A stretch of 64,000 nt of DNA from an uncultured Gammaproteobacteria bacterium. GTDB lineage: Bacteria; Patescibacteriota; Microgenomatia; Levybacterales; UBA12049. The stretch lies in assembly GCA_965230895.1 (NCBI GenBank), contig OZ246394.1, forward strand, positions 569,316-633,315. The letters are read 5' to 3'. The notes under the pieces are model-generated. The model made no database searches. It worked only from the letters and a program-made list of their open reading frames with translations, and had not been told where the DNA came from. Below are positions 7,772-64,000 of the stretch, in pieces. How positions within the stretch are numbered: the first letter of the stretch is position 1; every line of letters begins with the position of its first letter. Made by a program: the position numbers and the translations under genes.

Positions 7772-9819
7772 GCCGCAAGCTTATCATCAGTATCACCAGC
7801 AAGTACTCTATCAACTTCTCTTTTCGTAGCAGTTAATCCGTCCTCTTTGGCGACTACAGGCATCTTATTATATATTTCTATTACGCCAGTTAGATATGCT
7901 TGCGCTGCAGTAACTTCTGCCTCACTCGTTATCAGTGGAGTTCTCCAATCTTCCCCTGCACTTGTAGGACTATTTGATCCATCAACTTTTTTGCCTAATT
8001 GATAGATGAGACCACTATTTGTATCTTTGTCTGGACCAACCATCTTGGCTGCAACTTCTCGCAATGGAGCTTTAAATTCAATATCCCATACTGGGAATAT
8101 TTGTCGGATCGCATTTCCCCATTCATGCAAACGATTTTTTAATGCCCTTTGGTCTACCTTGATTTCAGGTTTTTTATTCTTTTTATCTTCTTTTGCGATG
8201 AGTTTTGCTTTCATTGCAGCCGCAGATTTTGCTTCAACTTTTGGTTTAACGTCAACTTGAGCATCAATTTTTGCACTTGTTTGCGTAGACGCAATTGCTT
8301 CAACATTGGTCTGTGAGACAGCTATCATTTCTGTATTTGTTTGAGTCACGATCTGCATACGAGGCGCAACTTGCGCTTCTGTTACAATACCTGGCTGAAC
8401 TTTTACTTCAGGCTTCGTCATCAATTCAGGCTCTGTTTTTATCGGCTGCATTTCCACTTTTCCAGTTGTTATTTGCTCTACAATTCGGCCAGTTGCGAGT
8501 TGGTCTGGAGATGTCTGTAAGAACCTATCAACTTTTAACTGAGCCTCTTTGATATTTGGGACAATTCCAGCTCTCAAATATGCTTGCGCTACTCGCTCTC
8601 GTTGCTCTGCTTCTACTTTTTCTTTTTTTTCTTTCGTTTTCTTATCATCTTCAGGAAGAATATCTAAGTATGAAAGGTTGGCAAGTTCTCGAGTATTTAC
8701 AGAAACGGTTTCGATGTGAGCAACTGGGTTTTGCTCTATTATTCGGTCCTCAGGAACAGCTGGCTTTGATACGATTACAGGTTTCAATTCTTCGGCTACA
8801 GAACGTGTCTGTACAACCTGCGCAATTACTTTTTGCACAGGAGCTGCTGGTGCTTCAACTGTCTTGGCAGGCTGCTCAATCACAGCTTGTGTCTCAACAA
8901 CCACTTCTGGTTTGGGTGCAACTGTTGGTTCTATTGACGGACGAATGATAACCGGAGGCTCTTGAATGACAGTTTCAAAAACTTTCATTTCAGGTTTCGC
9001 AGTTGGTTCAACGATTGCCTCAGTCGGAGTTGAGATTACTTCGGTTGGGACTATTTTTTCGACAGGTACGTTTACTTTTTCTTCTAAATCTACTTTTGAC
9101 TGTGTAACTTCTTTTGGTTGTGTTTGTACTTCTGGTTGATTCACTTTTTCTAAGGAAACAACGGGTGAAACGACTTTCTCTACAGCAATATCTGATTTTT
9201 GCTCTACGTTAGCATCTGGTTGAGGTGCTTTGGATTCTGGAAGCTTTACTTGAGCATCTTTAACATGGTTATTATTTATCTCATTATTGAAAGGAGCAGA
9301 TTGCGAAACATTTTCTTTTGAAACCAGACTTTTCGGAGTGGCTTCAGCATGAGGTTTAAACTCTGGTAGTTTATCTAGTCTCGTATTTGCACTTGATTGT
9401 GGGATAACTGCAGCTACTTCAATATTTCCTTTTTTAGCTCCATTGGATGAAGTTGCTTCGGGAGCTTTTGATTTAGGAGTGTTTTCTTTTACCAAAGAGA
9501 CCGCTGGAGAAGATTCTGTAAGTGAATCCATCCGAGGTGTTCTTGCCGAAGATTCCATAAATCCTCCAGTTTTGTTACCAACTGATCGGCTTGATTGGAA
9601 TTTGCTTCCTTCGAGAGAAAGTGAAGGTTTTGATACAGAACCGAGGGAAGGTCTGCTTTCAGAACTTTTACCAAATGATGCAAGTCCTCGTGAAGAAAAT
9701 GAAGAAGTCATTCCAGATCCGGATCCTCGTTCTATACCACCACCGAAGCCGCGTCCTCCACTTAATGTGGCTGTTCCGCCGCCTCGTGATCCTCCTGATA
9801 TTCCACCTGTTTTTGCCAT
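7768..9819 (-). CDS. Large (683 aa) predominantly disordered protein with Gly/Arg-rich (RGG-like) N-terminus and a small folded C-terminal domain
   Basis: Uninterrupted ORF with a typical K/E/P/V/T-rich low-complexity body. No signal peptide or TM. N-terminus GGSRGGGTATLSGGRGFGGG. Confidence 0.55.
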   Translation of the reverse strand: MAKTGGISGGSRGGGTATLSGGRGFGGGIERGSGSGMTSSFSSRGLASFGKSSESRPSLGSVSKPSLSLEGSKFQSSRSVGNKTGGFMESSARTPRMDSLTESSPAVSLVKENTPKSKAPEATSSNGAKKGNIEVAAVIPQSSANTRLDKLPEFKPHAEATPKSLVSKENVSQSAPFNNEINNNHVKDAQVKLPESKAPQPDANVEQKSDIAVEKVVSPVVSLEKVNQPEVQTQPKEVTQSKVDLEEKVNVPVEKIVPTEVISTPTEAIVEPTAKPEMKVFETVIQEPPVIIRPSIEPTVAPKPEVVVETQAVIEQPAKTVEAPAAPVQKVIAQVVQTRSVAEELKPVIVSKPAVPEDRIIEQNPVAHIETVSVNTRELANLSYLDILPEDDKKTKEKKEKVEAEQRERVAQAYLRAGIVPNIKEAQLKVDRFLQTSPDQLATGRIVEQITTGKVEMQPIKTEPELMTKPEVKVQPGIVTEAQVAPRMQIVTQTNTEMIAVSQTNVEAIASTQTSAKIDAQVDVKPKVEAKSAAAMKAKLIAKEDKKNKKPEIKVDQRALKNRLHEWGNAIRQIFPVWDIEFKAPLREVAAKMVGPDKDTNSGLIYQLGKKVDGSNSPTSAGEDWRTPLITSEAEVTAAQAYLTGVIEIYNKMPVVAKEDGLTATKREVDRVLAGDTDDKLAA

Positions 9820-17185: not shown

Positions 17186-18634
17186 TTATTTTGAGGGAAG
17201 AGCTGCTTTACTCCTCAATTTTCGATGATACGTAATTGCAAATCTATGAGCCTCATTTCGTAATCTTTGGATCAAGAACAGTGATGGAGAATTTTTTGGT
17301 AAAGAAATCTCAGTAAAATGCTCTTCATTGACAATGATTGTTTTGTTCTTTTCAGAATGTGTCCCTGCAAAACGAAGATTGAGAAGTTCTTGATATGTCC
17401 GGACCATTGGCGTGTCAGAATCCATCGATCCCTTCTCTCCTCCTTGCATTCCCCCAAGGGTTGGGACGACAATTGTTTCTTCTCTTTTTGCCAATCCAAC
17501 CAATGGAATAGACATCCCGCATTCAACGAGAGCAACTAGCGCACTTGAAACTTGCCCTTTCCCTCCATCAACAATAATCAAATCCGGCATATTCCAGTCA
17601 TCATGCTTGAGGCGTCTTTTCAACACTTCCTGCATCATTGCAAAATCGTTTGGCAAATCTTTTGTTGAGCGCTTATCCCATTCCCTTTTAATCTTAAACT
17701 TACGGTATTGTGAAGATTCTTTTTCACCGTTTACAAACACAACCATAGAACCAACAGCATTGGTTCCTTGAATATTGGACATATCATAGCATTCAATTCG
17801 TTCTAACTTTTCAAGCCCCATCCCTTGTTCATTAAGAACTTGCATCAATCCATCTAATTCCTGCTGCCTTTTATCTTCACGCAAGTTTGGATTGACATCG
17901 TATTCAAATGGCTTATGGAAAGGTGTGGTAATCAAACTCATGGCATTAATTCTTTTTTGAAAAATTAACGCTTTCTCAAAATCTTCAACTTTACTCGCTT
18001 TATCACGTTCTTTCTCAAGTTCAGTCATAATCTTTTTTGATTCGCCTTCAAGCATGCGGATAATGCCTTTAATATTCTTTTTGTATTCTTTACGCAGTTC
18101 TGGCGAATCGTTCACTGGAGGACATGGACAAAGACCTAAATGATTGTAGAGACAAATTCGTTTCGGATGATTTGGAGTTGAAACAAACGGAAAGATTCGA
18201 CGCATTGTTTTCAGAACAAGTTTTAGTGCTCCAGAACTTGGATACGGCCCAAAATATAATGAATGCTTATCATCTTCACGTCTAGATAATAATACCTCAG
18301 GATAATCTTTATTGACTGTAATTCGGATCTTTAAATACTGTTTATTATCAGTGAGTTTGATGTTGTACTTTGGATTATATTTCTTGATGTAAAACGCTTC
18401 GAGAAGTAATGCTTCAAGTTCCGATTCAACGATGGTGATGTTAATCTTGTCAATTTGAGAAACAAGAACTTGAGTCTTTGCACCCAGATTTGCGCTTTTA
18501 ACAAAGTATGAGGAAACTCTCGATTTGAGGTCTTTGGCTTTTCCAACATAAATAACCGTTCCGTTTTTATCTAAATAGACGTAAACCCCGGCTTCTGATG
18601 GCAATGATAAGTATTGTGAACGCGAGAATACCAA
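17186..18634 (-). CDS. uvrC: Excinuclease ABC subunit C (short form)
   Basis: N-terminal GIY-YIG (GVYVYLDKNGTVIYVGKAKDLKSRVSSYF), UvrBC-interacting region and RNase H-like endonuclease region. 482 aa. Confidence 0.85.
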   Translation of the reverse strand: MVFSRSQYLSLPSEAGVYVYLDKNGTVIYVGKAKDLKSRVSSYFVKSANLGAKTQVLVSQIDKINITIVESELEALLLEAFYIKKYNPKYNIKLTDNKQYLKIRITVNKDYPEVLLSRREDDKHSLYFGPYPSSGALKLVLKTMRRIFPFVSTPNHPKRICLYNHLGLCPCPPVNDSPELRKEYKKNIKGIIRMLEGESKKIMTELEKERDKASKVEDFEKALIFQKRINAMSLITTPFHKPFEYDVNPNLREDKRQQELDGLMQVLNEQGMGLEKLERIECYDMSNIQGTNAVGSMVVFVNGEKESSQYRKFKIKREWDKRSTKDLPNDFAMMQEVLKRRLKHDDWNMPDLIIVDGGKGQVSSALVALVECGMSIPLVGLAKREETIVVPTLGGMQGGEKGSMDSDTPMVRTYQELLNLRFAGTHSEKNKTIIVNEEHFTEISLPKNSPSLFLIQRLRNEAHRFAITYHRKLRSKAALPSK

Positions 18635-20381
18635 CTGCTATACCTCCTCCCAATGGTGTTAAGAAAAATGGAGCTGATTTAACTTGATAGACGTTTGAAG
18701 CTCCAGCTACACGTATTGTATATTCGCCTTCAGTGTTTGTCAAAAATGATGTTGGATTAAACTTCGCTTGGACTTCAGCAGTTCCAAATGGCGGAATTCC
18801 TGTCGTAGCAATGGTTTGTGTATTTGGTGAGAAGGTATTTGATGATAAGTAAAGAATTTGCGGAGATAAATACGTCGATCCTGTGTTCATCACTTTTATC
18901 GAACCTGTAATCGGTAATCCTGCAATTGCAAGCTCTGGGATAGTACTGTTTGTATCAATACTTTGTCTTGGCTGGAAAGGTTCAGTAGTAAATTCAACTT
19001 GCACATCTTTTGATGCAGCCTGATCTGTATATTTGTAACCTCCGGCAGGAATAGGATATTCACTGTTTACACCTTTAATGACCAGTGCCATGTGTGAAAA
19101 ATCCATAACACTGAAGTAATCCACTCCACCAGTTGTACTTCCCCATGTAGGATCTACCATTACCCATGTCTTTTTATCTTTATCATAATATTCTGGCCAA
19201 ACATGAAGAATATCTTTTTCTTTAGAAAGCGGTCGTTGTTTTGCATTCTCTGTATATGCATACCCATCAACTTCTCGAGCTGGGATGCCTGCTGCTCGTG
19301 CTAAAGCAATAAAGAGATCTGTGAACTCTCGACAAACGGCTGAGTTTTGATTCTGTAGTGAACCTAGCGCGCCCAACCGAGGTTTTTCTTCAGTTACTCG
19401 CGAGAAATCATAATCTAAAGCATCTACTACATAATCGTAAATTCGTTCAGGGGTTTTTAATTCATCCGCTAACTCACGGATCTGATCATTAGATGATTCC
19501 CAATACTTTTGTTGCAACGTGTAAGTCTGTAATTGCTCTGGTGTTAACTCCACAGGCTTTGGCGTTAAATGTACTTGTGTTTTCCCTGCGACAACGACAT
19601 CCATATTTTGTGCTGATTTCAACTTATATTGTGCGAGCCAATTGCCATCTTTGTCTTGGATAACATTTTCAGGCGCAGGGACAATAGCATCTATCGAAAC
19701 TTCCTGATAATTTGTATCTGGTGGCAAGGCAATTTCGGTAGTTATCGGATAAAGATTTGGATTTCGGAGATGGTAGGTCAAGTTATATTTGTAGACCTGT
19801 GTATTTCCAAATGCAATTGAAATCCCTGATCTACCTAGTGTATCTTTCGTAAACGTTAAGGCATTCGTTGGTTGCTTTGGCTTTGTATATGCTGGCTGAC
19901 CAAATGAGGGAGGAACTTTTAGTTCCACAACAAACGATTTAAAGTCATTGGGATTGGATATCCCAGGGATATCAATTTCCCAGATCTTACCATAATGCCG
20001 TGCAATAGTGGGCGTATCAAAGGTTATCTGGAACTGTTGCTTGCTATTCAAGCCAACCGCTTTATTGTTAAACTTCACATCAATGATATGCCCTGTCTCA
20101 TTTTTGATAACCCCAGCTTGAATTTCTCCCCCACTATCTCGAGCTCTGACGTTAGAAATCTCACTGAAACCAAGCTGCATTTTATATGAAGGTGCATAAT
20201 ATTGAGAAGTCGTATTAGTAAGCGTAATGTCAATGACAGAATGCGCCACACCCGTCTCATCGATTGTATAGGTAACTTTATAATCAGTATCGAAATTAGC
20301 CGCCGCTTGAGCAGGCTTGGTTGGGACGAAACTAAACAAGAGCACGAAGAGTAAAACTATTGAGAGCAGTTTTCGAATCAT
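18567..20381 (-). CDS. Exported transglutaminase-like cysteine protease domain protein with C-terminal TM anchor
   Basis: Signal peptide MIRKLLSIVLLFVLLFSFVPTKPAQA. Transglutaminase core NSAVCREFTDLFIALARAAGIPAREVDGY (Cys), later HVWPEYYD (His) and MVDPT (Asp). Confidence 0.7.
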   Translation of the reverse strand: MIRKLLSIVLLFVLLFSFVPTKPAQAAANFDTDYKVTYTIDETGVAHSVIDITLTNTTSQYYAPSYKMQLGFSEISNVRARDSGGEIQAGVIKNETGHIIDVKFNNKAVGLNSKQQFQITFDTPTIARHYGKIWEIDIPGISNPNDFKSFVVELKVPPSFGQPAYTKPKQPTNALTFTKDTLGRSGISIAFGNTQVYKYNLTYHLRNPNLYPITTEIALPPDTNYQEVSIDAIVPAPENVIQDKDGNWLAQYKLKSAQNMDVVVAGKTQVHLTPKPVELTPEQLQTYTLQQKYWESSNDQIRELADELKTPERIYDYVVDALDYDFSRVTEEKPRLGALGSLQNQNSAVCREFTDLFIALARAAGIPAREVDGYAYTENAKQRPLSKEKDILHVWPEYYDKDKKTWVMVDPTWGSTTGGVDYFSVMDFSHMALVIKGVNSEYPIPAGGYKYTDQAASKDVQVEFTTEPFQPRQSIDTNSTIPELAIAGLPITGSIKVMNTGSTYLSPQILYLSSNTFSPNTQTIATTGIPPFGTAEVQAKFNPTSFLTNTEGEYTIRVAGASNVYQVKSAPFFLTPLGGGIAVGILAFTILIIAIRSRGLRLFR

Positions 20382-49148: not shown

Positions 49149-50300
49149 ATGTCCAAATGGTTCTTGGGGTGCATTACCGCGGTTTTGTTATTCCTCTTCC
49201 TTCCAAACCAGACAGCACTTGCAGCAGAAAACCCTGTCGCTGTCGCCAACAATAAAGTCGGAATTCATATTCTTTCCGGACTTGAATTGCCGCAGGCCGC
49301 AGAACTCGTCAATAGTAAAGGCGGTGACTGGGGGTATGTTATTGTACCAATCCAATCTGGAGATAAAGACCTCATCAAATGGCAAAAATTCATGGATGAT
49401 TGCAAGAAATATCGCGTTATACCTGTTATTCGATTAGCAACAGAAGGAGATTATTTCAATACTTCAGTATGGAGAGAGCCTACCCCATCCGATATTATCG
49501 ATTTTGCAAATTTTTTGAACTCCCTTGATTGGCCGACAAAGAACCGATACGTCATTGTATTTAATGAAGTGAATCGTGGTGACGAATGGGGTGGGGCAGC
49601 GAATCCAAAAGAATATGCAGAGATTCTGAGTTTTGCAGTCAGTGTTTTTAAGTCAAAGACACCTGATTTCTTTATGATCAGCGCCGGCTTAGATAATGCT
49701 GCACCTGAAGAAGGAACAAAATACATGAATCAATACAGTTATCTGAAACGGATGAATGAGGCTGTGCCAGGCATATTTAATCAACTCGATGGTCTGAGTA
49801 GTCATTCATATCCAAATCCAGGCTTTTCGCAACCACCGGATGACAAGGGCCAAATGGGTATATCGAGTTTTGTTTATGAACGGACACTTGTCAAAAGTAT
49901 GAGCAATAAATTACTTCCTGTATTTATTACAGAAACAGGTTGGGTTTCAGATAAGGTCAGTGATGATCAGCGCGCAGAGTATTATAAAAAAGCTTTTGCA
50001 ACAGTATGGAACGATCCTGGAGTTGTAGCAGTCATGCCATTTTTACTGCAGGCAGGTGCTGGTCCATTTGAAAAATTCACGTTTATTAAAGGTAATGGAG
50101 AAAAGACAAAGCAATATCAAGTCATCCAGGAGATGCCAAAAGTAAAAGGTGTCCCGAGCTACCCTACTCGCCGAGTTCTTGCGGCCAAGACAAGCCGCGA
50201 AGCCGAGATGAAAGATTTTTCATACTATCAGAGAGACCAGCGATCATTTTCTTTGAGCGCAGTGATGCAGGATGTCTTTAATTACTTAATAAACAAGTAA
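49149..50300 (+). CDS. Secreted TIM-barrel glycoside hydrolase, clan GH-A-like
   Basis: Signal peptide. VIVFNEVN (candidate acid/base NE) and VFITETGW (candidate nucleophile ITE) spaced as in GH-A families. Confidence 0.4.
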   Translation: MSKWFLGCITAVLLFLFLPNQTALAAENPVAVANNKVGIHILSGLELPQAAELVNSKGGDWGYVIVPIQSGDKDLIKWQKFMDDCKKYRVIPVIRLATEGDYFNTSVWREPTPSDIIDFANFLNSLDWPTKNRYVIVFNEVNRGDEWGGAANPKEYAEILSFAVSVFKSKTPDFFMISAGLDNAAPEEGTKYMNQYSYLKRMNEAVPGIFNQLDGLSSHSYPNPGFSQPPDDKGQMGISSFVYERTLVKSMSNKLLPVFITETGWVSDKVSDDQRAEYYKKAFATVWNDPGVVAVMPFLLQAGAGPFEKFTFIKGNGEKTKQYQVIQEMPKVKGVPSYPTRRVLAAKTSREAEMKDFSYYQRDQRSFSLSAVMQDVFNYLINK

Positions 50301-52954: not shown

Positions 52955-53995
52955 ATGCTTGATCTCAACAACAAAGAGCACATCCAGGAAATCGATAAGT
53001 TAGATGCCCTCGGCACCACTGAAAATCTTCTTAAGCAATGCGAAGCCGCATGGAATGAATCAACTGCTCTCTCTGTGCCTAAGATAGAAAATGTAACAAA
53101 TATTGTCTTTTGCGGCATGGGCGCTTCCATGTATGGTGGACTTGTCTTAAAATCATTACTCGGTCGAAATGTACCATATCCAGTTGAAATCGTTAGTGAC
53201 TACTATTTGCCTGATTATGTTGGAAAGAATACACTTGTCGTATTAACAAGTTACTCAGGAACAACTGAAGAAGTGCTTTCTTGTGCTGAGGACGCAAAGT
53301 CGAAAGAAGCACAAATGATTGTGGTAACAAAAGGAGGAACGCTTGCTGAATTTGCTCGAGATAACAATGTTCCTGCGTATATATTTGATCCCAAGCTTAA
53401 CCCAAATAATGTTCCTCGGTTGGGCACTGGCTATACAATTCTTGGGATGATTGGTCTGTTAAATAAAACCGGCGTTATAGATATTGAGGAGAAAGAGATC
53501 TCAGATGCACTTGTCCGTATGTATGATAAATTTGATGAGATCAAGCAGCAAGCTTTTGAGGACCACAAGATATTTATCAATAAAATCCCCATTATAGTTG
53601 CTGCAGAACAGCTTACGGGAAATGCTTTAATATTGCGAAATCAACTCAATGAAACCAGCAAGGCATTCTCTGCTTTTTATCTCCTCCCTGATCTAAATCA
53701 CCATCTTATGGAAGGATTGCAATTCCCTGCTGAAGCTCCCCTCCATTTCCTTGCTCTTAGTTCTCCAAATTATTCGGACAAGATTAAAAAGCGCCTAACA
53801 CTAACCGAAGAAGTTATTATACAAAATAAATATCCCGCTCATGAGTTTACGACTAGTGGTCAAACAAGTTATGATGATGTATTAGAGGTGCTATTTTATG
53901 GAAGCTTCCTAACTGTATATCTCGGCTTGGCTTATGAACAGAATCCTGGGACTAATCCTTGGGTAGATTGGTTTAAGAAGGAATTAAATGCTTAA
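52955..53995 (+). CDS. Bifunctional phosphoglucose/phosphomannose isomerase (SIS domain, archaeal type)
   Basis: SIS loop FCGMGASMYGGLVLKS and a second SIS region; 346 aa. Confidence 0.8.
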   Translation: MLDLNNKEHIQEIDKLDALGTTENLLKQCEAAWNESTALSVPKIENVTNIVFCGMGASMYGGLVLKSLLGRNVPYPVEIVSDYYLPDYVGKNTLVVLTSYSGTTEEVLSCAEDAKSKEAQMIVVTKGGTLAEFARDNNVPAYIFDPKLNPNNVPRLGTGYTILGMIGLLNKTGVIDIEEKEISDALVRMYDKFDEIKQQAFEDHKIFINKIPIIVAAEQLTGNALILRNQLNETSKAFSAFYLLPDLNHHLMEGLQFPAEAPLHFLALSSPNYSDKIKKRLTLTEEVIIQNKYPAHEFTTSGQTSYDDVLEVLFYGSFLTVYLGLAYEQNPGTNPWVDWFKKELNA

Positions 53996-54366
53996 GCAAC
54001 AATTGACTTCACTTTATCGACAAGCTGTGCAGGCGTAAAAGAACTCTTCAACATATAGCCATCAGTAAATCCCAAAACATGATCAATGTCTTTTGTCTCA
54101 TCACTATTCGTTAGAAAAAGAATATGCTTAGCAGGCTTCTTCAAGAATGTTTTAACCTGATCCATAATCTGGACACCGGTCATAATGGGTAGAAGTACGT
54201 CTAAAAGAATTAAATCCCATCCTCCAATTTTGATTTTATCCAATGCTTCTTTCCCATCAGCTGCTGTAGTTACATCATATCCAGCACTTGAAAGCGTTTC
54301 GTTATAAATATCACGAAGAAACATATCATCTTCTACTAGGAGTATTTTTATTTTGTTTTCCATCAC
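53992..54366 (-). CDS. Stand-alone response-regulator receiver domain (CheY-like)
   Basis: KILLVEDD (acidic pocket), phospho-acceptor D in LILLDVLLP, conserved T and K later; 124 aa; no output domain. Confidence 0.8.
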   Translation of the reverse strand: MMENKIKILLVEDDMFLRDIYNETLSSAGYDVTTAADGKEALDKIKIGGWDLILLDVLLPIMTGVQIMDQVKTFLKKPAKHILFLTNSDETKDIDHVLGFTDGYMLKSSFTPAQLVDKVKSIVA

Positions 54367-54442: not shown

Positions 54443-54925
54443 TTATCGAGTAACTTGGATTGGTGGAGTATATGCACTTGGTGCTGAAACTGTTATTCTA
54501 TTATTTGTATCTCTTGTAATTGTGTAACCTGTGTTCCATGTTCCTGCGCATTCACCAGCTTCAACTCCTGCCTGATCATTAAGTGTTGGATCCATTGGAA
54601 GTGCTGGCATATAATTTGGTACTAACTGAGCACAAAGAGCACCTAAATCGGCCCCACTTTGCAATGGGGTTGGGTCATTTACATCCAAAGCCTGAACAAG
54701 CGGCGGTAATTGCCCAGTATTTGATGCTGTATATTGTCCGATTGCATTAAGAATCTGAGTAACATCACTTCGACGCTTTGTATCATTTGCTTGGCCAAAT
54801 TGTCGTGCAGGGTTAATAGCGATAAGTGTGATTGCTAAAAGGATAGCGAGGATACCGATTACAACGAGTAATTCGATGAGTGTGAAACCTTTTTGGTCTT
54901 TGTTAAATATTTGTCGGACAGTCAT
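54443..54925 (-). CDS. Type IV major pilin, paralog 1
   Basis: Class III leader and cleavage site NKDQKG|FTLIELLVVIGILAIL with Glu5; about 160 aa; C-terminal Cys pair. Confidence 0.85.
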   Translation of the reverse strand: MTVRQIFNKDQKGFTLIELLVVIGILAILLAITLIAINPARQFGQANDTKRRSDVTQILNAIGQYTASNTGQLPPLVQALDVNDPTPLQSGADLGALCAQLVPNYMPALPMDPTLNDQAGVEAGECAGTWNTGYTITRDTNNRITVSAPSAYTPPIQVTR

Positions 54926-56083: not shown

Positions 56084-56560
56084 TTAGCGAGTTACTTGGA
56101 TTGGAGGAGTGTATGCACTTGGCGCTGATACTGTTATTCTATTATTTGCATCTTTTGCAACTGTATATCCAGTGTCCCATGTGCCCGCGCAGTCACCAGC
56201 TTCAACTCCAGCTTGATCGTTAAGAGTTGGATCCATTGGAAGTGCTGGCATATAATTTGGAACTAATTGTCCACAGAGGGATGGGAAATTTGTACTATTG
56301 AGTGCGGCTGAACCACTTGCAAGAGCTTGAACATTTGGAGGCAATTGGCCTGTATTAGATGCTGTGTATTGTCCGATTGCGTTAAGAATCTGTGTTACAT
56401 CACTTCGACGCTTTGTATCGTTTGCTTGTCCGAATTGTCGTGCTGGATTAATTGCGATAAGAGTGATAGCTAAAAGAATAGCGAGGATACCAATTACAAC
56501 GAGTAATTCTATGAGTGTGAAACCTTTTTGATTTTTATTAAATACTTCTCGGACAGTCAT
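56084..56560 (-). CDS. Type IV major pilin, paralog 2
   Basis: MTVREVFNKNQKG|FTLIELLVVIGIL. N- and C-terminal thirds are near-identical to paralog 1. The ORF-track start at 56614 reads through the conserved untranslated leader. Confidence 0.85.
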   Translation of the reverse strand: MTVREVFNKNQKGFTLIELLVVIGILAILLAITLIAINPARQFGQANDTKRRSDVTQILNAIGQYTASNTGQLPPNVQALASGSAALNSTNFPSLCGQLVPNYMPALPMDPTLNDQAGVEAGDCAGTWDTGYTVAKDANNRITVSAPSAYTPPIQVTR

Positions 56561-56660
56561 ATTGTTTTTGATCAAGTTATCTTGATCTGTATCCATTATT
56601 GTCATAATGCTCAACTGTTGTCAATAGAGCAAAAATTGAAAAAAAATCGAAAATTCAAGG

Positions 56661-57800
56661 CTATTTACCTAGGATAATCGTAATATCATTATCGCCTTCT
56701 TGTCTTTCTTCTACAGTGATATTTGGTCTTATTTTTTCAACTTCCTCAAGAATTGCGGTGCGGGTAGATTGAGTTACAGTCCCAGCAAAAAAAATAACTG
56801 ATTCTGAATTTCTAGTACTACTCCTTGTTTGCGTAGTTATGTCTTTGAATTTATATGTTTCAAGAGCGGTCCGTAAAGGCGCAGAACTAGAAGCAGAAGA
56901 ACTGACAATTTGAACGGTAAGATTTTCAAACTGAACTGGTTCAACCGGTGGAACTGTCGGCGGTACAGTTGCTACAGGGGCAGTCTGAGGCATAACAGTT
57001 GGTTGAACCGTAGCTTGGGGCGCTGGTGGTTGCATGCTTTGCATGTAAACGATAACCAGAACAACCAGTAAAATTACTAATATTCCAATCATTCCTATTA
57101 ATCGTTTCTTATTTGTCTTTGGTGGTTCTTTCCCTTGCGCTAATTCTTCCTGAACTTCGTCAACAGATTCTTCCTCTTCTTTTTTTGCCGGAGTAAATGC
57201 AGCTTGGGTCTTAATATCATATTGCTTCAAACTTGGAGTTTTCTGAATTGTCGTATTGATGAGATTCATGTCCATCGGTTTTGCACTCAATTCCCCACCC
57301 AATACCATTCCCGGAAAAACAGAGGCAATAGTAAAGCCAAGCTTTTCAAATGCTCGTTCAATGGTTGCATAGAGATCCTGATTGACTGCACAAACACGTA
57401 TACCATTTTTTAGTGGGAATGTTTTGCTCACCACATTTTCATAAGGAACATGTTCGATAAACATATCAATCTGAGGTTTTAAATCAGCAATTGTTGTTTT
57501 AGGTGTGGCAGTTGGTACAGGCTGTCCAGATTTTACTGGCTGCTGAGCTGATTGCGGAGGAATGATAAAGTCTTTCACGAAATAAGCATTATCTGCGAGT
57601 ACGATAATGAAGTTACTTGGAGGGATTTTGTTATTTGTTACTAAAATCTTTATTTGCTCTTCAAGCTTGTCATCATTTAATACATCCAAGTCCCGCACAA
57701 TATCTGGAGGAAATCGATATTCCACAAGTGATTTTAAATAAGGTGAATATAATTGAAATTTATCTTTTTGGAGATAGATTACTCCTGTTCTTACTGCCAT
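56661..57800 (-). CDS. Bitopic pilus-assembly-like protein (cytoplasmic N-domain, TM, Pro/Thr/Val-rich periplasmic region); PilM/PilN/PilO-like role is inferred
   Basis: TM helix LIGMIGILVILLVVLVIVYM near residue 230; position inside the pilin operon. Confidence 0.3.
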   Translation of the reverse strand: MAVRTGVIYLQKDKFQLYSPYLKSLVEYRFPPDIVRDLDVLNDDKLEEQIKILVTNNKIPPSNFIIVLADNAYFVKDFIIPPQSAQQPVKSGQPVPTATPKTTIADLKPQIDMFIEHVPYENVVSKTFPLKNGIRVCAVNQDLYATIERAFEKLGFTIASVFPGMVLGGELSAKPMDMNLINTTIQKTPSLKQYDIKTQAAFTPAKKEEEESVDEVQEELAQGKEPPKTNKKRLIGMIGILVILLVVLVIVYMQSMQPPAPQATVQPTVMPQTAPVATVPPTVPPVEPVQFENLTVQIVSSSASSSAPLRTALETYKFKDITTQTRSSTRNSESVIFFAGTVTQSTRTAILEEVEKIRPNITVEERQEGDNDITIILGK

Positions 57801-57801
57801 A

Positions 57802-58224
57802 TTAGAAAGCCTCTTTCTCTGACGTAACCGTCAGTTGATTATTTATATACGTTGCTCGGACCTCAACAGTTCTTTTGAAATTACCGACTGTTCCAGTTGA
57901 TGTAATAATATACGGACTCCCCGATGTGCCACTCCCTCCTACGGTTATAACTGCCTGACCTTGACCGATTGTCAAAGTTTCACCCGTATACGTTGTGGGT
58001 GTACGAAGTAGTCGCAATAATCCGTTCTCTGCCCCACTCTGCGCAACTTGATACGCAACTTCTCCCTGTTGTTGTCTTGTTCCACTATTTGAATTTATCA
58101 AGATCATAACAATTGCCGCAGACGTAATCGTTAGTCCAATAATCATAAAGAACAATAGCGTTATAAGCGCTTGCCCTCGTTGATATGAGAGCGATAATTT
58201 CTTAATTACTTTACCACTTCTCAT
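57802..58224 (-). CDS. Minor pilin / pseudopilin-like protein (non-canonical +1/+5 residues)
   Basis: QRG|QALITLLFFMIIGLTI prepilin-like N-terminus lacking Glu5; 140 aa. Confidence 0.5.
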   Translation of the reverse strand: MRSGKVIKKLSLSYQRGQALITLLFFMIIGLTITSAAIVMILINSNSGTRQQQGEVAYQVAQSGAENGLLRLLRTPTTYTGETLTIGQGQAVITVGGSGTSGSPYIITSTGTVGNFKRTVEVRATYINNQLTVTSEKEAF

Positions 58225-58775
58225 TGTCTTGCTAAAGTTGTCTGGAACGACCTTGATTCTGCACCCGACGGCTGCTGAATCCTACTCACCACAGTGAAAT
58301 TCACCCGAATTGTATCATTACTATCTCCTGCTCCAATCCGTTGGAAAGATAAACCTGTAAGGTATGAGTTAGCTCCGTTTAATTTATTTACTTCTCCGGT
58401 TGATCCATTTGTGAGGAGAAGATTTCCCCCACTATCAAGGCTATAGGTATAGTTTATAGAATTTACCCGTATTTGCAAAGTAGACGAAGTCACTCCTGGA
58501 GATGCTGGAGTAGTTATACGATCACCTGATGGAGAAGCACTTATGGATTTCATATCATAAAACAACTTGCCCATGATATATCTTCCATCCTGATCAACAA
58601 CGGATGTTGATTCTGATTCCAACTGAACTTCAACAATCTGTCCAAACATCGTACTCATAATACCAACGAGTATTGAAAGAATTCCTACATACAAAACTAA
58701 TTCGATAAGTGTAAATCCTTTTTGCCTTTTTTGAGAGGATACCTTGGCAGCAAAAAACTTCTGAAAAAATTTCAT
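58221..58775 (-). CDS. Minor pilin / pseudopilin
   Basis: KRQKG|FTLIELVLYVGILSILVG with Glu5; 184 aa. Confidence 0.7.
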   Translation of the reverse strand: MKFFQKFFAAKVSSQKRQKGFTLIELVLYVGILSILVGIMSTMFGQIVEVQLESESTSVVDQDGRYIMGKLFYDMKSISASPSGDRITTPASPGVTSSTLQIRVNSINYTYSLDSGGNLLLTNGSTGEVNKLNGANSYLTGLSFQRIGAGDSNDTIRVNFTVVSRIQQPSGAESRSFQTTLARQ

Positions 58776-58829: not shown

Positions 58830-61073
58830 TTACGAACCACCATTGGATCCACCTGAACCGGACCCGCCGTTTTGATCTCCTTGAAGTTGATTAATCAAGC
58901 TTGTAATATCAGTGTACAATAAATTATATCCTTCAACTGTTATACTCTTCCCTTTTTGTTTATTGAGTTCCACAAGCATAGCTTTCAAAGTTATAATTGC
59001 GAGCTTATTTCCCAATGGTTGTCTGTTGATTAATGTAGCTCTTTCTGCAACTTCAGCTTGCACTTTGAGTGCTGTATAAAATATAACGTTTTTAATTTGC
59101 TTCTGCTGGTAGAGTTTCTTGATGTCATCTTTTAGAATATTAAAGGTAATTTCACGGATAGGTTCTGTTTTAATATTATTTATATTTTCTTTATCATATG
59201 AAAGTTTATATACAGCCTCTGTTTCAGGAGTTAGATTACCCGTATAGGAAGCGGTTTTCATTTCCCCTTCCTCAGTAAATATATACTCATCCAATTGATA
59301 ATCTGGATCGGTTGCGGAGTAAAGTTCTACTCTATAATTGCTTGATTCTGGCTTTGCAAAATAGAATACCTTTACAGCTGATGTATTTGTATTAAATGGT
59401 TCTTCTACAAGTTGTGCAGGACTGTACTCCAAATAACTTTCCCCATACGTAGCTCCATTCTCATCACGAACAGTTATATAAACATCTTTATCAGCGACAT
59501 AAACCATGTAAGATAGATCAGTATGTGAAGGAATATATCTTCTAACCGATACTGCTTGGTTATTATATGAGGCAAGGGTTGTTCTATTAAATAGCGGATC
59601 ATTTATTTCAAAAGTATTGCCAGTTTTACCTTTCGCCACAACGAAATGCATACCAGGAGCATTTACTTGTAAAATATTAGGAATACCTTGATTTAAATCA
59701 TTTGTTAAAGTCGTTGTATTGAAGTACATATCAGGATTATACTCGAGAGCATCATATTGAAAGTTTGGGTTCTGCGACTTTGCTTTTTTAGCTAGATTCC
59801 CCACAGCGGACCATATAACTCCTAAATTACGATTATAGCCCTTATTTTCTTTCAACCATTTGTTTACGGTTCCTGGATTAACATCACTTCCGTCTGGCAT
59901 TTTGTTAATCCCATGATATCTTAAAATCATTGCAATTGAACTTGTAGCGCATCCACACTGCGTCATAGTCCTTCCACAGACAAACTGCCCAGCATTAGCG
60001 TGATCAAATTCTTCTGCCTCCCATGCAGGATTATTGTCATTATATGGAGCAACTCCTTGCTTAAATAAAGGTACATTTAAACTTGCTCCACCTATTGGAG
60101 GGGTTGGGATCATAGAAGGGAGAGGATTTGTAATTGTTTTTGGGTCAAAAGTACTAATTTTATCAAATTGTGCAAACCAAATATTACCGTCTGGGCCAGA
60201 AGTTATGTCATACACTGCACCTGAAGTATCGTATTCAATTACGTCTCCATTTTGTTGAAATTTTCCAATTATTTTTGTATTAGATCGTGTATACCATAGA
60301 GCATCATCTGATCCTAAAGTGAGTTGATCGACGTTTGGTTTAAATATTGGGTATTCAGTTATATCTCCGTGGTAAGTTATATTAGCGATTTTATTTCCAC
60401 CGTATTCTGTAAACCAAATATTATTGTTTGGGCCAAGAGCTATTCCTGTTGGGGAGCTTGAAAGAGTAGGTATTGTAAATTCAGTAATAACCCCTGTTGG
60501 AGTTATTCTTCCTATCTGATTGTCATTTGACTCAGTGAACCAAATATTGCCATCAGAACCACTAACAAGACGGACCAGTCCGATAAATGATGACGCTGGC
60601 AACTCAAAGTACATAACTGAACCACTACTGGATATTCTACCAATCTTATTTGTATTCCCAGAAGAAAACCACATATTATTATCTGGACCTAAAATAATAT
60701 CATCAGGAGCAAAATTATTATCAAGTTGATATTCAGTTATTGAACCATTTATTGTAGACCTTGCTACTTTATGAGAATTAAACTCAGTAAACCAGACATT
60801 ACCATTATTATCGCTAACAATCGAATTCGGCCTACTATATGGAGATGGTATTGTGTACTCTGTCACTATACCGGATATAGTAACTTTTCCTATCTTATTT
60901 GTTTCTATTGCAGTATACCAAATATTTCCGTCAGGACCTGATGTAATACTGGACACATTACTTCCATAAGGTAGTTGATAATCCTTGATACTAGAAGCCT
61001 CTGCAGTAGAACTAGCAAATAAAAAAAGTATAAACAAAGAAGTCACTAGACTAAAACGAAAAAAATTAATCAT
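58830..61073 (-). CDS. Secreted multidomain protein: 7-bladed Vgb-lyase-like beta-propeller, papain-like peptidase_C39-like domain and C-terminal beta/helical region
   Basis: Sec signal. Seven repeats of the form GPDGNIWFTE...NKIGRIT. Then QFVCGRTMTQCGCATSSIAM (Cys), GMHFVVAKG (His) and INDP (Asp/Asn). Gly/Ser tail. Confidence 0.6.
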   Translation of the reverse strand: MINFFRFSLVTSLFILFLFASSTAEASSIKDYQLPYGSNVSSITSGPDGNIWYTAIETNKIGKVTISGIVTEYTIPSPYSRPNSIVSDNNGNVWFTEFNSHKVARSTINGSITEYQLDNNFAPDDIILGPDNNMWFSSGNTNKIGRISSSGSVMYFELPASSFIGLVRLVSGSDGNIWFTESNDNQIGRITPTGVITEFTIPTLSSSPTGIALGPNNNIWFTEYGGNKIANITYHGDITEYPIFKPNVDQLTLGSDDALWYTRSNTKIIGKFQQNGDVIEYDTSGAVYDITSGPDGNIWFAQFDKISTFDPKTITNPLPSMIPTPPIGGASLNVPLFKQGVAPYNDNNPAWEAEEFDHANAGQFVCGRTMTQCGCATSSIAMILRYHGINKMPDGSDVNPGTVNKWLKENKGYNRNLGVIWSAVGNLAKKAKSQNPNFQYDALEYNPDMYFNTTTLTNDLNQGIPNILQVNAPGMHFVVAKGKTGNTFEINDPLFNRTTLASYNNQAVSVRRYIPSHTDLSYMVYVADKDVYITVRDENGATYGESYLEYSPAQLVEEPFNTNTSAVKVFYFAKPESSNYRVELYSATDPDYQLDEYIFTEEGEMKTASYTGNLTPETEAVYKLSYDKENINNIKTEPIREITFNILKDDIKKLYQQKQIKNVIFYTALKVQAEVAERATLINRQPLGNKLAIITLKAMLVELNKQKGKSITVEGYNLLYTDITSLINQLQGDQNGGSGSGGSNGGS

Positions 61074-61119: not shown

Positions 61120-63624
61120 CTATTGTGAGTAATTCCATTTAATATCATTTAGAACCGGAGTAACTCTTTGATCAGTTAAGGATTCCAATGTAACCTTATA
61201 TCTAAAGCATCTTTCTGGATTAATATACTCATTATTTACATAACTTCCAAAAGGTATTTTATCTTCGATAACTGAGGATTCTGAAGTATAATAGGTGCTT
61301 TCACTCCCATCAGGGCCTACATATTTATAACCGGATGTTGGACAGTTTCCATTTATCTGAGCATGTACCGCTACTTGAATTTTTACGGAAGTATTAGAGG
61401 GTTGAGTAACATTCGCCAAAAGCCTGTTGAGCGTTCTAGCAATTGTACTTCCATCAGCGGTGGCTGTATCAAACACTTGTGATTCGAAAGTTCCACTTGG
61501 CATAAAAATCGCATTATCAGGACCCCCCTGAATAATTTTTAATTCATTCAATTGGTTATTTGCGACCATATAGACATAGTTGTCATAATCCGCTTCTGAT
61601 ACAGATGTTAGGTCATTAAAACCGTCAGAGAAATCCACTCCAGAACAATACGTTGGGGTTGCTTCTGTCTCAGTATTGAGGACCTGGTATTCCTGAGCAT
61701 TTCCCCCACCAGATACACCATCCTTTCCCACAAGTACTGCGCGTTGGCCATTGAGTACGGTCAGAGATCGTCGTGGGTATAATTCTGAAGCTCCAGCTGG
61801 TGCTGGAGACGCTCCATTATAAAATCCAGAAGATGGGGTACTTGATCCTGTCAAAAATGTCGGAGAGGTTTTAGATGTAGTATTAAGGATATAGAATTGC
61901 TTACTATCGCTTCCTCCATTTGAGGAGATATATGCTCTCGTGCCATCTGCATTTGCAAATACTGAATTTGATGCCTCCTCTGTCCCTGATCCAGTATTAA
62001 AATCTTTACTTCCGCTGACCCTCCATGTAGACGCTCCTCCAGAAATTCTTCCACAACTATTTCCTGTTAACGAAGTTCCACTCGTTGGAGCCGTTGTGAC
62101 ATTCACAATTTCAAATTCCGGATTTGTCACTCCACCGACAGCAACATAAACATAGGTATTGTTTCCCACTTTCACTGGATAAATGTCATTTGTAGCACGC
62201 AATTCGATATTTCCTCCATCCGAACAATCATTATGAATTGGAGAAGTTGTGTCGCTCCAGCTTGTCCCTGATTGGCCAGAATCATACTTCGCAGCAGTTC
62301 CCGTTGTTCCGGGCTTACACTCATAGCCATCCAATTCAATCCTACAGCCATACATATCCAAACCACTCGAGGTCGATTTACTATCAATATTTGCCAGATT
62401 GAAAACATACAGATATCCGCCTGATGCGACATATCCCCGATCGCCTAATACAGCTACGGACGAAGCACCATAGCCATATGGTGATTGATCATTACTGGAA
62501 CTTGCGATACCATTATATCTTCGTGTATTAAAAAAAGTTTTATATTTATACAGCTTATTAACCGGATCTTGGTATTCTCCACTTGTTGTATTATCGTTGG
62601 CATCATTACCGTCATTTACCCACACTGCAATCACTTCTTTATCAGGAAGATCCGTCCCAATAATTGCATAAGTATTGCCCCCTGAGGATTTATAATACTT
62701 TACGTCCGTGGTTGAAAAGCTATTTGTAAGCCCTGTACCAGATTGAGGCGAATACCCTGAGGCATATTCTGAAGAATTCATTGAAAACCGTCCACGCAAA
62801 GTTGTCGTAGGCGTTTCTGAATTTGCAGTAACATTTATATAAGCTAACTTTGAAGAACTGGTTGCGTATGGAGCAGTTGCAACAAACACATCATTTGGCT
62901 GTGCAGTAGTAGCACTAGCCGTGGCTGCAACAGCAACAGGTGGTCCATCAGGTAAATCAATCGTTGCTTCCCCTCCAAGGCTATTTAAAGCAAATGCTGG
63001 AGAACACCATTTGGCTTTATTATTATTAGCAAGTTTTATTTCTCCACCCGTATCACTCGTGTACTGAACATTAACACCTGTTCCTGCTTCAAATTGAGCT
63101 TTTGTCGTGTGTTCGGCACTTAGATTGGACGTTCTGGTCAGGAAAATGGTTGAGGTGATTGAAGATGCAATTGGCCTGGTCCAGGAAACTGTAATATTAG
63201 CTTTCCGTGTCGAAGGATCAAGTGTATTTCCTGCAGAGGTTGATGCAATTGCTCCTGAGGAATCTCTGTATACACTTGATAATACAACTTGTTGCGTAAA
63301 ACCGGCAGCATTTGATGCAGTTCCTGAAGCCATCGTCCATCGGTTATTTGAAATAACTGGATGATAAGAAGCTCCAATGGTTAAATTAGAAAGCGCTGTC
63401 CAATCACTATCCCGCACGTTTTTAACTGCAGTTTCGGTTTCTTTCATCAAAGCAATCCCTTGCAATCGTTGTTCTTGTTGCGGCTTGCCATCACGCGATG
63501 CGAGCAAACTTAACACCAAACCAGGCAAGATCAACGCTGCCAATCCTATGGTTAAAACTAATTCTACTAATAATTGTCCTCGCTGTAGCTTCTTCATCTT
63601 ATTGCATACTTGAAATAACTCCAT
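61120..63624 (-). CDS. Giant pilin-like protein (834 aa) with prepilin-type N-terminus and a large Ser/Thr/Gly/Asn-rich extracellular domain; candidate tip adhesin
   Basis: KKLQRG|QLLVELVLTIGLAALILPGLVL has Glu5; the rest is a beta-rich domain dominated by S/T/G/N/Y. Confidence 0.55.
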   Translation of the reverse strand: MELFQVCNKMKKLQRGQLLVELVLTIGLAALILPGLVLSLLASRDGKPQQEQRLQGIALMKETETAVKNVRDSDWTALSNLTIGASYHPVISNNRWTMASGTASNAAGFTQQVVLSSVYRDSSGAIASTSAGNTLDPSTRKANITVSWTRPIASSITSTIFLTRTSNLSAEHTTKAQFEAGTGVNVQYTSDTGGEIKLANNNKAKWCSPAFALNSLGGEATIDLPDGPPVAVAATASATTAQPNDVFVATAPYATSSSKLAYINVTANSETPTTTLRGRFSMNSSEYASGYSPQSGTGLTNSFSTTDVKYYKSSGGNTYAIIGTDLPDKEVIAVWVNDGNDANDNTTSGEYQDPVNKLYKYKTFFNTRRYNGIASSSNDQSPYGYGASSVAVLGDRGYVASGGYLYVFNLANIDSKSTSSGLDMYGCRIELDGYECKPGTTGTAAKYDSGQSGTSWSDTTSPIHNDCSDGGNIELRATNDIYPVKVGNNTYVYVAVGGVTNPEFEIVNVTTAPTSGTSLTGNSCGRISGGASTWRVSGSKDFNTGSGTEEASNSVFANADGTRAYISSNGGSDSKQFYILNTTSKTSPTFLTGSSTPSSGFYNGASPAPAGASELYPRRSLTVLNGQRAVLVGKDGVSGGGNAQEYQVLNTETEATPTYCSGVDFSDGFNDLTSVSEADYDNYVYMVANNQLNELKIIQGGPDNAIFMPSGTFESQVFDTATADGSTIARTLNRLLANVTQPSNTSVKIQVAVHAQINGNCPTSGYKYVGPDGSESTYYTSESSVIEDKIPFGSYVNNEYINPERCFRYKVTLESLTDQRVTPVLNDIKWNYSQ

Positions 63625-64000
63625 ACCTATTTAATCGTAGAACTTTCTGATCATTATTCATACTGTCATGAATCGTAATAACAGCTGACGTACTTGCATA
63701 ATTTGTAACTTCTCCACTCCCTTTTGTAAATGTTATCGATGAACTTGCGGAAGCTGTTGTTATAGTTAATGTGTTCGGATATGATACTGCGAAATTAGCT
63801 GAAGCAGTGGCTACATATGTACCTTTATATAGTATATATCGATGATTTGCCGAATCAAATTGGATACCATAATTATCAGCAGTTGTTGTACCACTTGTGT
63901 CACCAGACATAGCTTTTGCTTGTTGATCTTTCAGATCTGCCATAAATGTATTTAAGGTAGAATTAAGCTGTGATTCATTTTGGAACCTGAACAAGCTAAC
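63599..64000 (-). CDS. Pilin-like or pilus-associated protein, 3' part (the N-terminus lies beyond the window edge)
   Basis: The ORF is open to the window end and Ser/Thr-rich like its neighbour; the first Met in the track is probably not the true start. Confidence 0.35.
   Translation of the reverse strand, partial: VSLFRFQNESQLNSTLNTFMADLKDQQAKAMSGDTSGTTTADNYGIQFDSANHRYILYKGTYVATASANFAVSYPNTLTITTASASSSITFTKGSGEVTNYASTSAVITIHDSMNNDQKVLRLNRYGVISSMQ

Follow-up and report, generated by a model that had tools for sequence, protein, structure and literature searches.

What does a secreted cysteine peptidase with a beta-propeller at its N terminus do inside a type IV pilus operon? The question is raised by a 64,000-nucleotide (nt) stretch of contig OZ246394.1 (assembly GCA_965230895.1, positions 569,316 to 633,315; GTDB lineage Patescibacteriota, Levybacterales, UBA12049), hereafter the window, in which an open reading frame (ORF) at 58830-61073 encodes a 747-aa protein among prepilin-type genes. 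All coordinates of this pilus locus refer to the minus strand. We describe the protein as a Sec-exported modular cysteine peptidase, predicted to be catalytically competent from its conserved triad and Gln339, and we tentatively read it, with a probability of roughly 0.4, as a pilus-coupled, target-directed envelope peptidase that acts most probably on a partner (host) cell. The linkage to the pilus appears to be what is new here, while the domains and their architecture were already present in databases.

The catalytic part of the protein is a papain-fold domain of the Peptidase_C39_2 type (aa 330-515; 59529..60086). Against PF13529 the full protein scores 30.6 bits and its C-terminal half 32.1 bits (gathering cut-off 24), and against Peptidase_C39 PF03412 the score is 23.1-25.2 bits (cut-off 22); all 19 aligned family members match both models. 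An AlphaFold2 (AF2) model of aa 322-747, built on 19 homologues and with a mean predicted local distance difference test score (pLDDT) of 84.6, displays an alpha/beta peptidase domain with a pLDDT of about 90. When this model was submitted to Foldseek, the top match was the C39-like peptidase 3ERV of Bacillus anthracis (probability 1.0), followed by the peptidase domains of ComA and PCAT1. The C39-like fold proposed in an initial annotation, made from the sequence without database searches, is thus borne out. In a conservation alignment of 25 sequences, with identity down to 32%, Gln339 (codon 60057-60059), Cys375 (59949-59951), His476 (59646-59648), Asn491 and Asp492 (59598-59603) and Pro493 are invariant. 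Gln339 lies in VPLFKQG, an instance of the family-typical VPxFxQ motif, Cys375 in CGCATSS, where the first Cys varies, and His476 in MHFVVAKG. The initial annotation had proposed an ordered Gln/Cys/His/Asn arrangement: its Cys and His, on whose conservation it had made the peptidase assignment depend, do not change in any of the sequences, while the glutamines that it named (Q363 and Q372) are not conserved and give way to Gln339. Its Asn, in the INDP motif, is the invariant Asn491. The family profile also aligns to the double-glycine protease LahT (6mpz, E 4e-4), with Cys375 aligned to CGAASLAM and His476/Asp492 to HFVV...INDP, and because of this alignment the acid of the triad is most likely the adjacent, equally invariant Asp492. 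At the canonical C39 oxyanion-Gln position, six residues before the nucleophile, the protein has Thr369, so that Gln339 is likely to be the substitute. That none of the four catalytic residues (Gln, Cys, His and Asp) varies speaks for an activity that has been kept.

The PF03412 match, the alignment to LahT and the presence of Gly-Gly motifs in the protein's own tail would fit the canonical role of C39 domains, namely double-glycine leader processing of a bacteriocin or signalling peptide, which in this case would take place outside the cell. We consider this role very unlikely. Canonical domains work on the cytoplasmic side, the gene lists of the window and of related loci include neither a fused or adjacent ABC transporter nor a small precursor gene, and the canonical oxyanion Gln is replaced by Thr369.

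Export is predicted from the N terminus, MINFFRFSLVTSLFILFLFASSTAEA|SS, which displays the features of a Sec-type signal peptide (aa 1-26; 60996..61073): the 12-aa Kyte-Doolittle mean reaches 2.5 and an AxA motif gives a predicted cleavage at AEA|SS. No lipobox Cys was seen in this leader, and hydropathy revealed no transmembrane-like stretch after it. A hydrophobic N-terminal leader is also aligned in the remaining full-length homologues. The clear Sec signal of the initial annotation is therefore retained, as read from the hydrophobic core and the AxA site.

The mature protein is predicted to start with a seven-bladed beta-propeller of the Vgb type (aa 27-312; 60138..60995), which matches Pfam Vgb_lyase PF24684 with an E of 9.5e-76 and the solved Vgb structure 2z2n with an E of 2.5e-57 over about 230 residues. 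Seven blade motifs, G-x-D/N-x-N-I/V/M/L-W-F/Y, begin at aa 46, 88, 129, 172, 214, 254 and 293 with a spacing of 39-43 aa, so that the seven GPDGNIWFTE-type blades counted initially agree with the Pfam and PDB scores. This strong similarity to Vgb, and the names that Pfam and JGI attach to such proteins, could suggest a streptogramin B lyase involved in antibiotic resistance. We took His228, Glu268, His270 and Glu284 to be the catalytic and metal-binding residues of Vgb, a choice that leans on the difference between the 2z2n and 2z2p entries; H270A is among the positions at which the deposited 2z2p sequence differs from 2z2n. These residues align to T209, D249, L251 and S264 in the propeller-C39 protein, are not conserved in the family, and the His270 column holds Ile or Leu in 25 out of 25 homologues. 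The NCBIfam models for Vgb(A) and Vgb(B) score 207.1 and 188.7 bits, far below their cut-off of 600, and the propeller is part of a secreted multidomain protein. A lyase function is thus effectively refuted, and we rejected it on account of the missing catalytic residues; for the same reason the label "streptogramin-lyase-like" used initially holds for the fold and fails for catalysis. The propeller is best read as a non-catalytic scaffold or binding module. The same propeller is used by thousands of multidomain secreted proteins, including fusions to S8 and M23 peptidases, and "streptogramin lyase" annotations on such proteins are misleading.

A variable linker (aa 313-329; 60087..60137), seen in the alignment as gap-rich, Pro/Thr-rich columns, joins the propeller to the peptidase domain; the part of it at the start of the AF2 model (the first 10 model residues, aa 322-331) has a mean pLDDT of 54. 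Beyond the INDP motif the initial annotation had placed a C-terminal region of about 300 aa ending in a Gly/Ser tail. The tail is there, while the region measures about 255 aa and is predicted to be structured. It comprises an all-beta sandwich, a four-helix bundle and 12 tail residues. The sandwich (aa 516-640; 59154..59528; model strands 188-318), a candidate accessory domain resembling carbohydrate-binding modules (CBM) or immunoglobulin-like domains, is modelled with a pLDDT mostly above 85, one loop excepted, and Foldseek relates it to the C-terminal part of the GH92 enzyme 7NSN (probability 0.99). In this Neobacillus enzyme the C-terminal part has been described as a CBM32 and a four-helix bundle (PMC10167667). 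The helix bundle of the window protein (aa 641-735; 58869..59153; model helices 323-335, 342-359, 366-384 and 392-414) appears to be of the FIMAH type: Pfam FIMAH PF22888 is matched by 14 of 19 family members (best E 5.5e-9), the window protein itself having no match at E <= 0.1, and Foldseek matches the bundle to 2rld and 7nsn. The protein ends in a tail predicted to be disordered (aa 736-747; 58833..58868; pLDDT <50) with the carboxy terminus ...NGGS. Such a Gly-Ser tail after the helix bundle is found in the window protein and at the C termini in L007, L008, L009, L011 and L020; six of 11 pilus-linked C39 genes encode a tail ending in G-S, versus none of about 62 non-pilus relatives, close ones included. 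It resembles no sorting signal known to us. A docking or loading tag, a tether and a pseudo-substrate are all conceivable, and as a pilus-linked C-terminal feature the tail is a candidate sorting or docking signal.

In order to evaluate the link to the pilus, we compared the ten Vgb-C39 loci with enough flanking sequence, the window included (L001, L007, L008, L010, L020, L028, L032, L086, L087 and L088). In all ten, the gene lies just downstream of pilB-pilC-pilin. The order is (Hpt)-response regulator-pilB-pilC-small pilin, then minor pilins and a conserved protein of about 378 aa, and a giant or other propeller-bearing pilin-like gene adjoins the Vgb-C39 gene in nine loci, L010 being the exception. 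The same slot is taken by a head-less orthologue in L004 and by a Kelch-headed one in L009, and contigs of matching length suggest three more neighbour pairs (P0002 with P0233, P0004 with P0230, and P0121 with P0235). The pilus-operon context reported initially is thus kept across the loci. Within the window the gene does sit, as first described, between the pseudopilins and a giant pilin-like gene: 54 nt separate it from a 184-aa prepilin-type gene and 46 nt from an 834-aa pilin-like gene, with no minus-strand terminator seen between it and either of them.

The gene is also dispensable to the locus. L091 encodes a giant protein 62% identical to that of the window, with the same genes on both flanks and no C39 gene, and the C39 gene is likewise absent from the syntenic loci L089 and L090. 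These loci indicate that the enzyme is an accessory, not a core pilus part, and that pilus assembly does not need it. In L086 the slot holds five genes: a propeller-M23-like gene, a GIY-YIG gene, a 164-aa ORF without a Pfam match, the Vgb-C39 gene and an IS200-type transposase. The first of these (6920-8548, plus strand; neighbours to 13194) is a paralogue; it and the C39 protein share 51% identity in signal peptide and propeller.

This optional presence bears on a role in pilus maturation, whereby the enzyme would act during assembly and cut a pilin, the giant pilin-like protein or a further part of the pilus. The tight operon linkage with the giant protein would suit such a protease, and so would the non-canonical signal peptides of giant pilin-like proteins in Saccharibacteria (PMC11623550). 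Prepilin leaders, by contrast, are removed on the cytoplasmic side while the enzyme is predicted to be exported, the gene is missing where synteny is kept and the giant protein is 62% identical, and most family members are not near pilus genes; we therefore regard a maturation protease as improbable. Processing of prepilin leaders as such was rejected, given the wrong membrane side and the optional gene. The initial annotation had also listed a processing protease among its options, and the absence of the gene from syntenic pilus loci speaks against one that processes the pilus.

The upstream neighbour, the 834-aa giant gene (61120..63624), encodes a prepilin-type helix, a pilin head and a beta-propeller-like region, without a Pfam match. 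Its AF2 model (pLDDT 67) displays a long N-terminal helix followed by the pilin head and a propeller-like all-beta region, and Foldseek matches this model to propeller assemblies. The family counts at least 339 homologues across Patescibacteria, with 52-87% identity, labelled in their source records only as 'type II secretion system protein' or 'PulG'. The gene is syntenic in L004, L007-L009 and L091, and in one genome pair the giant protein is more conserved than the C39 protein (87% versus 73% identity). The giant protein belongs to the conserved core of the locus and is likely to be the tip protein. We weighed against this background whether the propeller-C39 protein could itself be a non-pilin tip adhesin comparable to PilY1, sitting on a minor-pilin tip complex and binding surfaces via its propeller, with the C39 domain being structural or regulatory. 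Like PilY1, it has a Sec rather than a prepilin signal, carries a propeller and is encoded among minor pilins, and the propeller-bearing PilX2 is a host-binding factor in TM7x (PMC11623550). No Pfam PilY1/PilC match was obtained, however, and the propeller is N-terminal and the variable rather than the conserved part of the protein. Its catalytic residues (Gln, Cys, His and Asp) do not vary, the gene is optional, and the conserved giant neighbour already provides a pilin-anchored propeller. A tip adhesin is thus unlikely in our view, and an essential PilY1-like priming factor was rejected given that syntenic loci lack the gene.

A search with the C-terminal half places the protein in a wider family found in Saccharimonadales, Levybacteria, Roizmanbacteria, Woesebacteria and other Patescibacteria, whose members, where NCBI names them, are called 'C39 family peptidase'. 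At least 19 database homologues share the propeller-C39 architecture. The initial annotation had not recognised this combination as described: the architecture does exist in databases under a generic name, while we found neither its functional study nor a description of its pilus linkage in the searched literature, nor any paper linking a C39 protein to Patescibacteria pili. In a profile search the constant core was joined to a range of N-terminal modules, namely Vgb, Kelch, Sortilin, DUF5122 and LVIVD propellers, LamG/DUF1080 lectin folds and a GH130-like module. The exchange is visible among close relatives: P0003-P0007 share 68-75% identity with the window protein in the C39 domain while their N-terminal modules are unrelated (Kelch, or a domain of about 170 aa), and in P0002 the head is also of the Vgb type, its propeller being just 38% identical to that of the window. 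These secreted C39_2 peptidases form a large, uncharacterised family in which the modular grammar is clear. PADLOC and PHROGs returned no matches and hence no hint of a defence system or of an origin in a phage; against viral models Foldseek gave one weak relevant match, a cyanophage 'lysozyme', with a probability of 0.99 but a template-modelling score (TM) of 0.25.

Pilus linkage is not a property of the whole C39 family, a proposition that we rejected: pilB, pilC or pilin genes are near about 4-6 of 75 representative family loci, where pilins were detected by regular expression, which may miss divergent ones. The remaining representative loci have recurrent GT2, GT4, methyltransferase, Wzx, Wzy, FtsW/RodA and signal peptidase I neighbours. 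A single recruitment into the pilus locus was also rejected, since a rough neighbour-joining (NJ) tree, built without support values, gives about three groups.

These neighbourhoods raise the possibility that the peptidase opens the cell's own peptidoglycan or surface layer for the pilus, or processes its own surface glycoproteins, with the propeller binding glycans of its own wall. This would resemble the specialised lytic enzymes of other secretion and pilus loci. Most family members do lie in own envelope-glycan and FtsW/RodA neighbourhoods, M23 peptidase genes occur within the same pilus loci (at the end of L008 and L088), and the diversity of N-terminal lectins could follow the diversity of own glycans. 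If true, the enzyme could help to explain how a pilus gets through a thick wall. Nevertheless, the gene is missing from fully syntenic pilus loci that retain all other components, so that passage of the pilus cannot depend on it; the targeting modules are exchanged quickly among close relatives; and the insertion sequence (IS) element and the GIY-YIG gene in the L086 slot look more accessory or cargo-like than housekeeping. Remodelling of the own wall is accordingly a serious possibility that we nonetheless rate as the less probable one.

Our preferred reading, a pilus-coupled peptidase directed to a partner's envelope, would work as follows. In the lineage of the window, the enzyme would have been recruited as an optional accessory of the type IV pilus operon, beside the giant propeller-bearing pilin-like protein. 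Produced together with the pilus, it would act where the pilus acts, the tip complex either keeping it docked or pushing it out. The propeller would serve as an exchangeable target-recognition module for a glycan or another envelope ligand, as suggested by close relatives in which its place is taken by a Kelch propeller, a lectin-type domain or an unrelated short domain. The peptidase would cleave peptide bonds in a cell envelope, most probably that of the partner (host) cell contacted by the pilus; its substrate would be either a surface protein or the stem or cross-bridge of peptidoglycan. We favour the partner's envelope over the own wall because of the optional presence of the gene, the fast exchange of heads and the mobile-element neighbours. 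Among the roles listed initially, an effector or host-targeted enzyme would be the best-fitting one. The clues to an envelope hydrolase are circumstantial: an M23 paralogue on the same propeller, M23 genes in the loci, envelope-gene neighbours, and surveys that list Peptidase_C39_2 among endolysin catalytic domains in phages of Gram-positive bacteria. Besides, cultured Saccharibacteria bind their hosts by means of type IV pili (PMC11623550).

Several points weigh against this reading. The endolysin listings are annotation-level only. The M23-like domain of the L086 paralogue scores 27.8 bits, just below the Pfam cut-off of 28.7, and the NJ tree has no single clean pilus-linked clade. Characterised C39 peptidases cut Gly-Gly leader peptides, not cell walls. 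Moreover, the envelope-glycan neighbourhoods of the non-pilus relatives are no less compatible with a target in the cell's own envelope than with one in a host.

A further extension of our preferred reading, which we hold to be doubtful, is that in some Patescibacteria the type IV pilus is a contact-dependent delivery device for interchangeable hydrolases (C39_2 or M23) on swappable propeller or lectin heads that would breach or remodel the envelope of the grabbed cell, the Gly-Ser tail loading the enzyme onto the giant-pilin tip. Few surface machines are nearly universal in the ultrasmall, host-dependent Patescibacteria, and type IV pili count among them. An optional pilus-operon enzyme with an exchangeable head is a testable candidate for the step from attachment to exploitation of the host envelope.

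The remaining genes of the pilus locus were inspected on both sides. Upstream of the giant gene lies a small pilin gene (63599..63994) whose 5' end is beyond the end of the window; its counterpart in L001 (6990-7475) encodes 161 aa and matches N_methyl. Downstream of the propeller-C39 gene, the 184-aa minor pilin (58221..58775) displays the prepilin motif KGFTLIE and matches both Pfam N_methyl (30.6 bits) and NCBIfam TIGR02532. It is followed by a 140-aa pilin-like protein without Glu5 (57802..58224), with a faint GspK-like match (NCBIfam T2SS_GspK, E 0.031), whose position is kept in L004, L007, L009 and L091. Next comes a 379-aa membrane protein (56661..57800) with a single transmembrane segment, a Pro/Gln/Thr-rich linker and no significant Pfam match. 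Its gene occupies the same place in every related pilus locus examined, L004, L007, L009 and L091 among them, and on the basis of this positional conservation the protein may be an unrecognised assembly or alignment component.

The probable major pilin (56084..56614; N_methyl 41.3 bits) has its own strong promoter-like site, an 11/12 match to a sigma-70 site (TTGACA-18-AATAAT, 56624-56595). The annotated TTG start of this pilin overlaps the site, so that the true start is probably a downstream Met. A second pilin gene (54443-54925) has an N-terminal half near-identical to that of the first and is preceded by an identical 11/12 site (TTGACA-18-AATAAT, 54990-54961); a terminator-like hairpin lies 3' of it (54421-54400), and a cyclase gene and a small ORF lie between the twin pilin genes. 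Another stand-alone response regulator (53992-54366) ends the pilus locus, and in most related loci an Hpt protein and a single-domain response regulator are found ahead of pilB (3397-4163 in L001). Taken together, the Hpt protein and the response regulators suggest phosphorelay control of the pilus system.

Other observations concern the rest of the window and the source records. At 18567-20381 (minus strand) the window encodes a 604-aa protein with a Transglutaminase-like core, another papain-fold cysteine enzyme, which adjoins uvrC and uvrA, with mutS and mutL further along, and is apparently unrelated to the pilus locus. At 49149-50300 (plus strand) it encodes a 383-aa protein with a signal peptide and no Pfam match, beside the DNA polymerase III delta gene; the position is the same in a related genome (L004). 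Finally, many related records of metagenome-assembled genomes (L011, L014, L016, L018-L020 and others) are titled 'uncultured Gammaproteobacteria' or 'Pseudomonadales', yet have a gene content typical of Patescibacteria and are closest to contigs labelled Saccharimonadales or Levybacteria; their titles look like placeholder or wrong taxonomy.

How does the protein compare with known systems? With Peptidase_C39_2 PF13529 and its representative 3ERV it shares a papain fold, secretion, a distant N-terminal Gln (VPxxxQ), the GC-x-x-TS nucleophile motif and the H...DP motif. Unlike enzymes of the 3ERV type, its domain stands between a propeller and a beta-sandwich with a helical bundle, has an insert of about 30 residues between Gln and Cys, and belongs to a pilus operon. 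No PF13529 member with a defined substrate was found in the searched literature. The C39 domains of ComA, LahT and PCAT1, from the PCAT/AMS ABC transporters, have the same fold and the same Cys/His/Asp arrangement; they are cytoplasmic, fused to an ABC transporter and cut at Gly-Gly, whereas the window protein is predicted to be Sec-exported, has no transporter and carries Thr at the position of the oxyanion Gln. Vgb (2z2n/2z2p/2qc5) is a seven-bladed propeller with the same blade repeat, while the propeller of the window protein is without the catalytic and metal-binding residues, is secreted and is used as a module.

In its conserved catalytic core and swapped targeting modules the protein resembles modular wall hydrolases and endolysins, and the Neobacillus GH92 enzyme has a comparable beta-sandwich and helix-bundle appendage. 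A propeller would be unusual as a wall-binding module, and the gene is chromosomal and pilus-linked rather than phage-borne (no PHROGs match). Finally, PilY1/PilC are likewise propeller proteins found among minor pilins, with a Sec rather than a prepilin signal in PilY1 too, and Nanosynbacter lyticus TM7x requires its propeller-bearing PilX2 to bind the host (PMC11623550). The window protein differs from these in the type and position of its propeller, with no Pfam or NCBIfam match to a C-terminal PilY1/PilC-type propeller domain, in its conserved peptidase and in being optional in the locus; the closer counterpart of PilX2 is the adjacent 834-aa giant protein.

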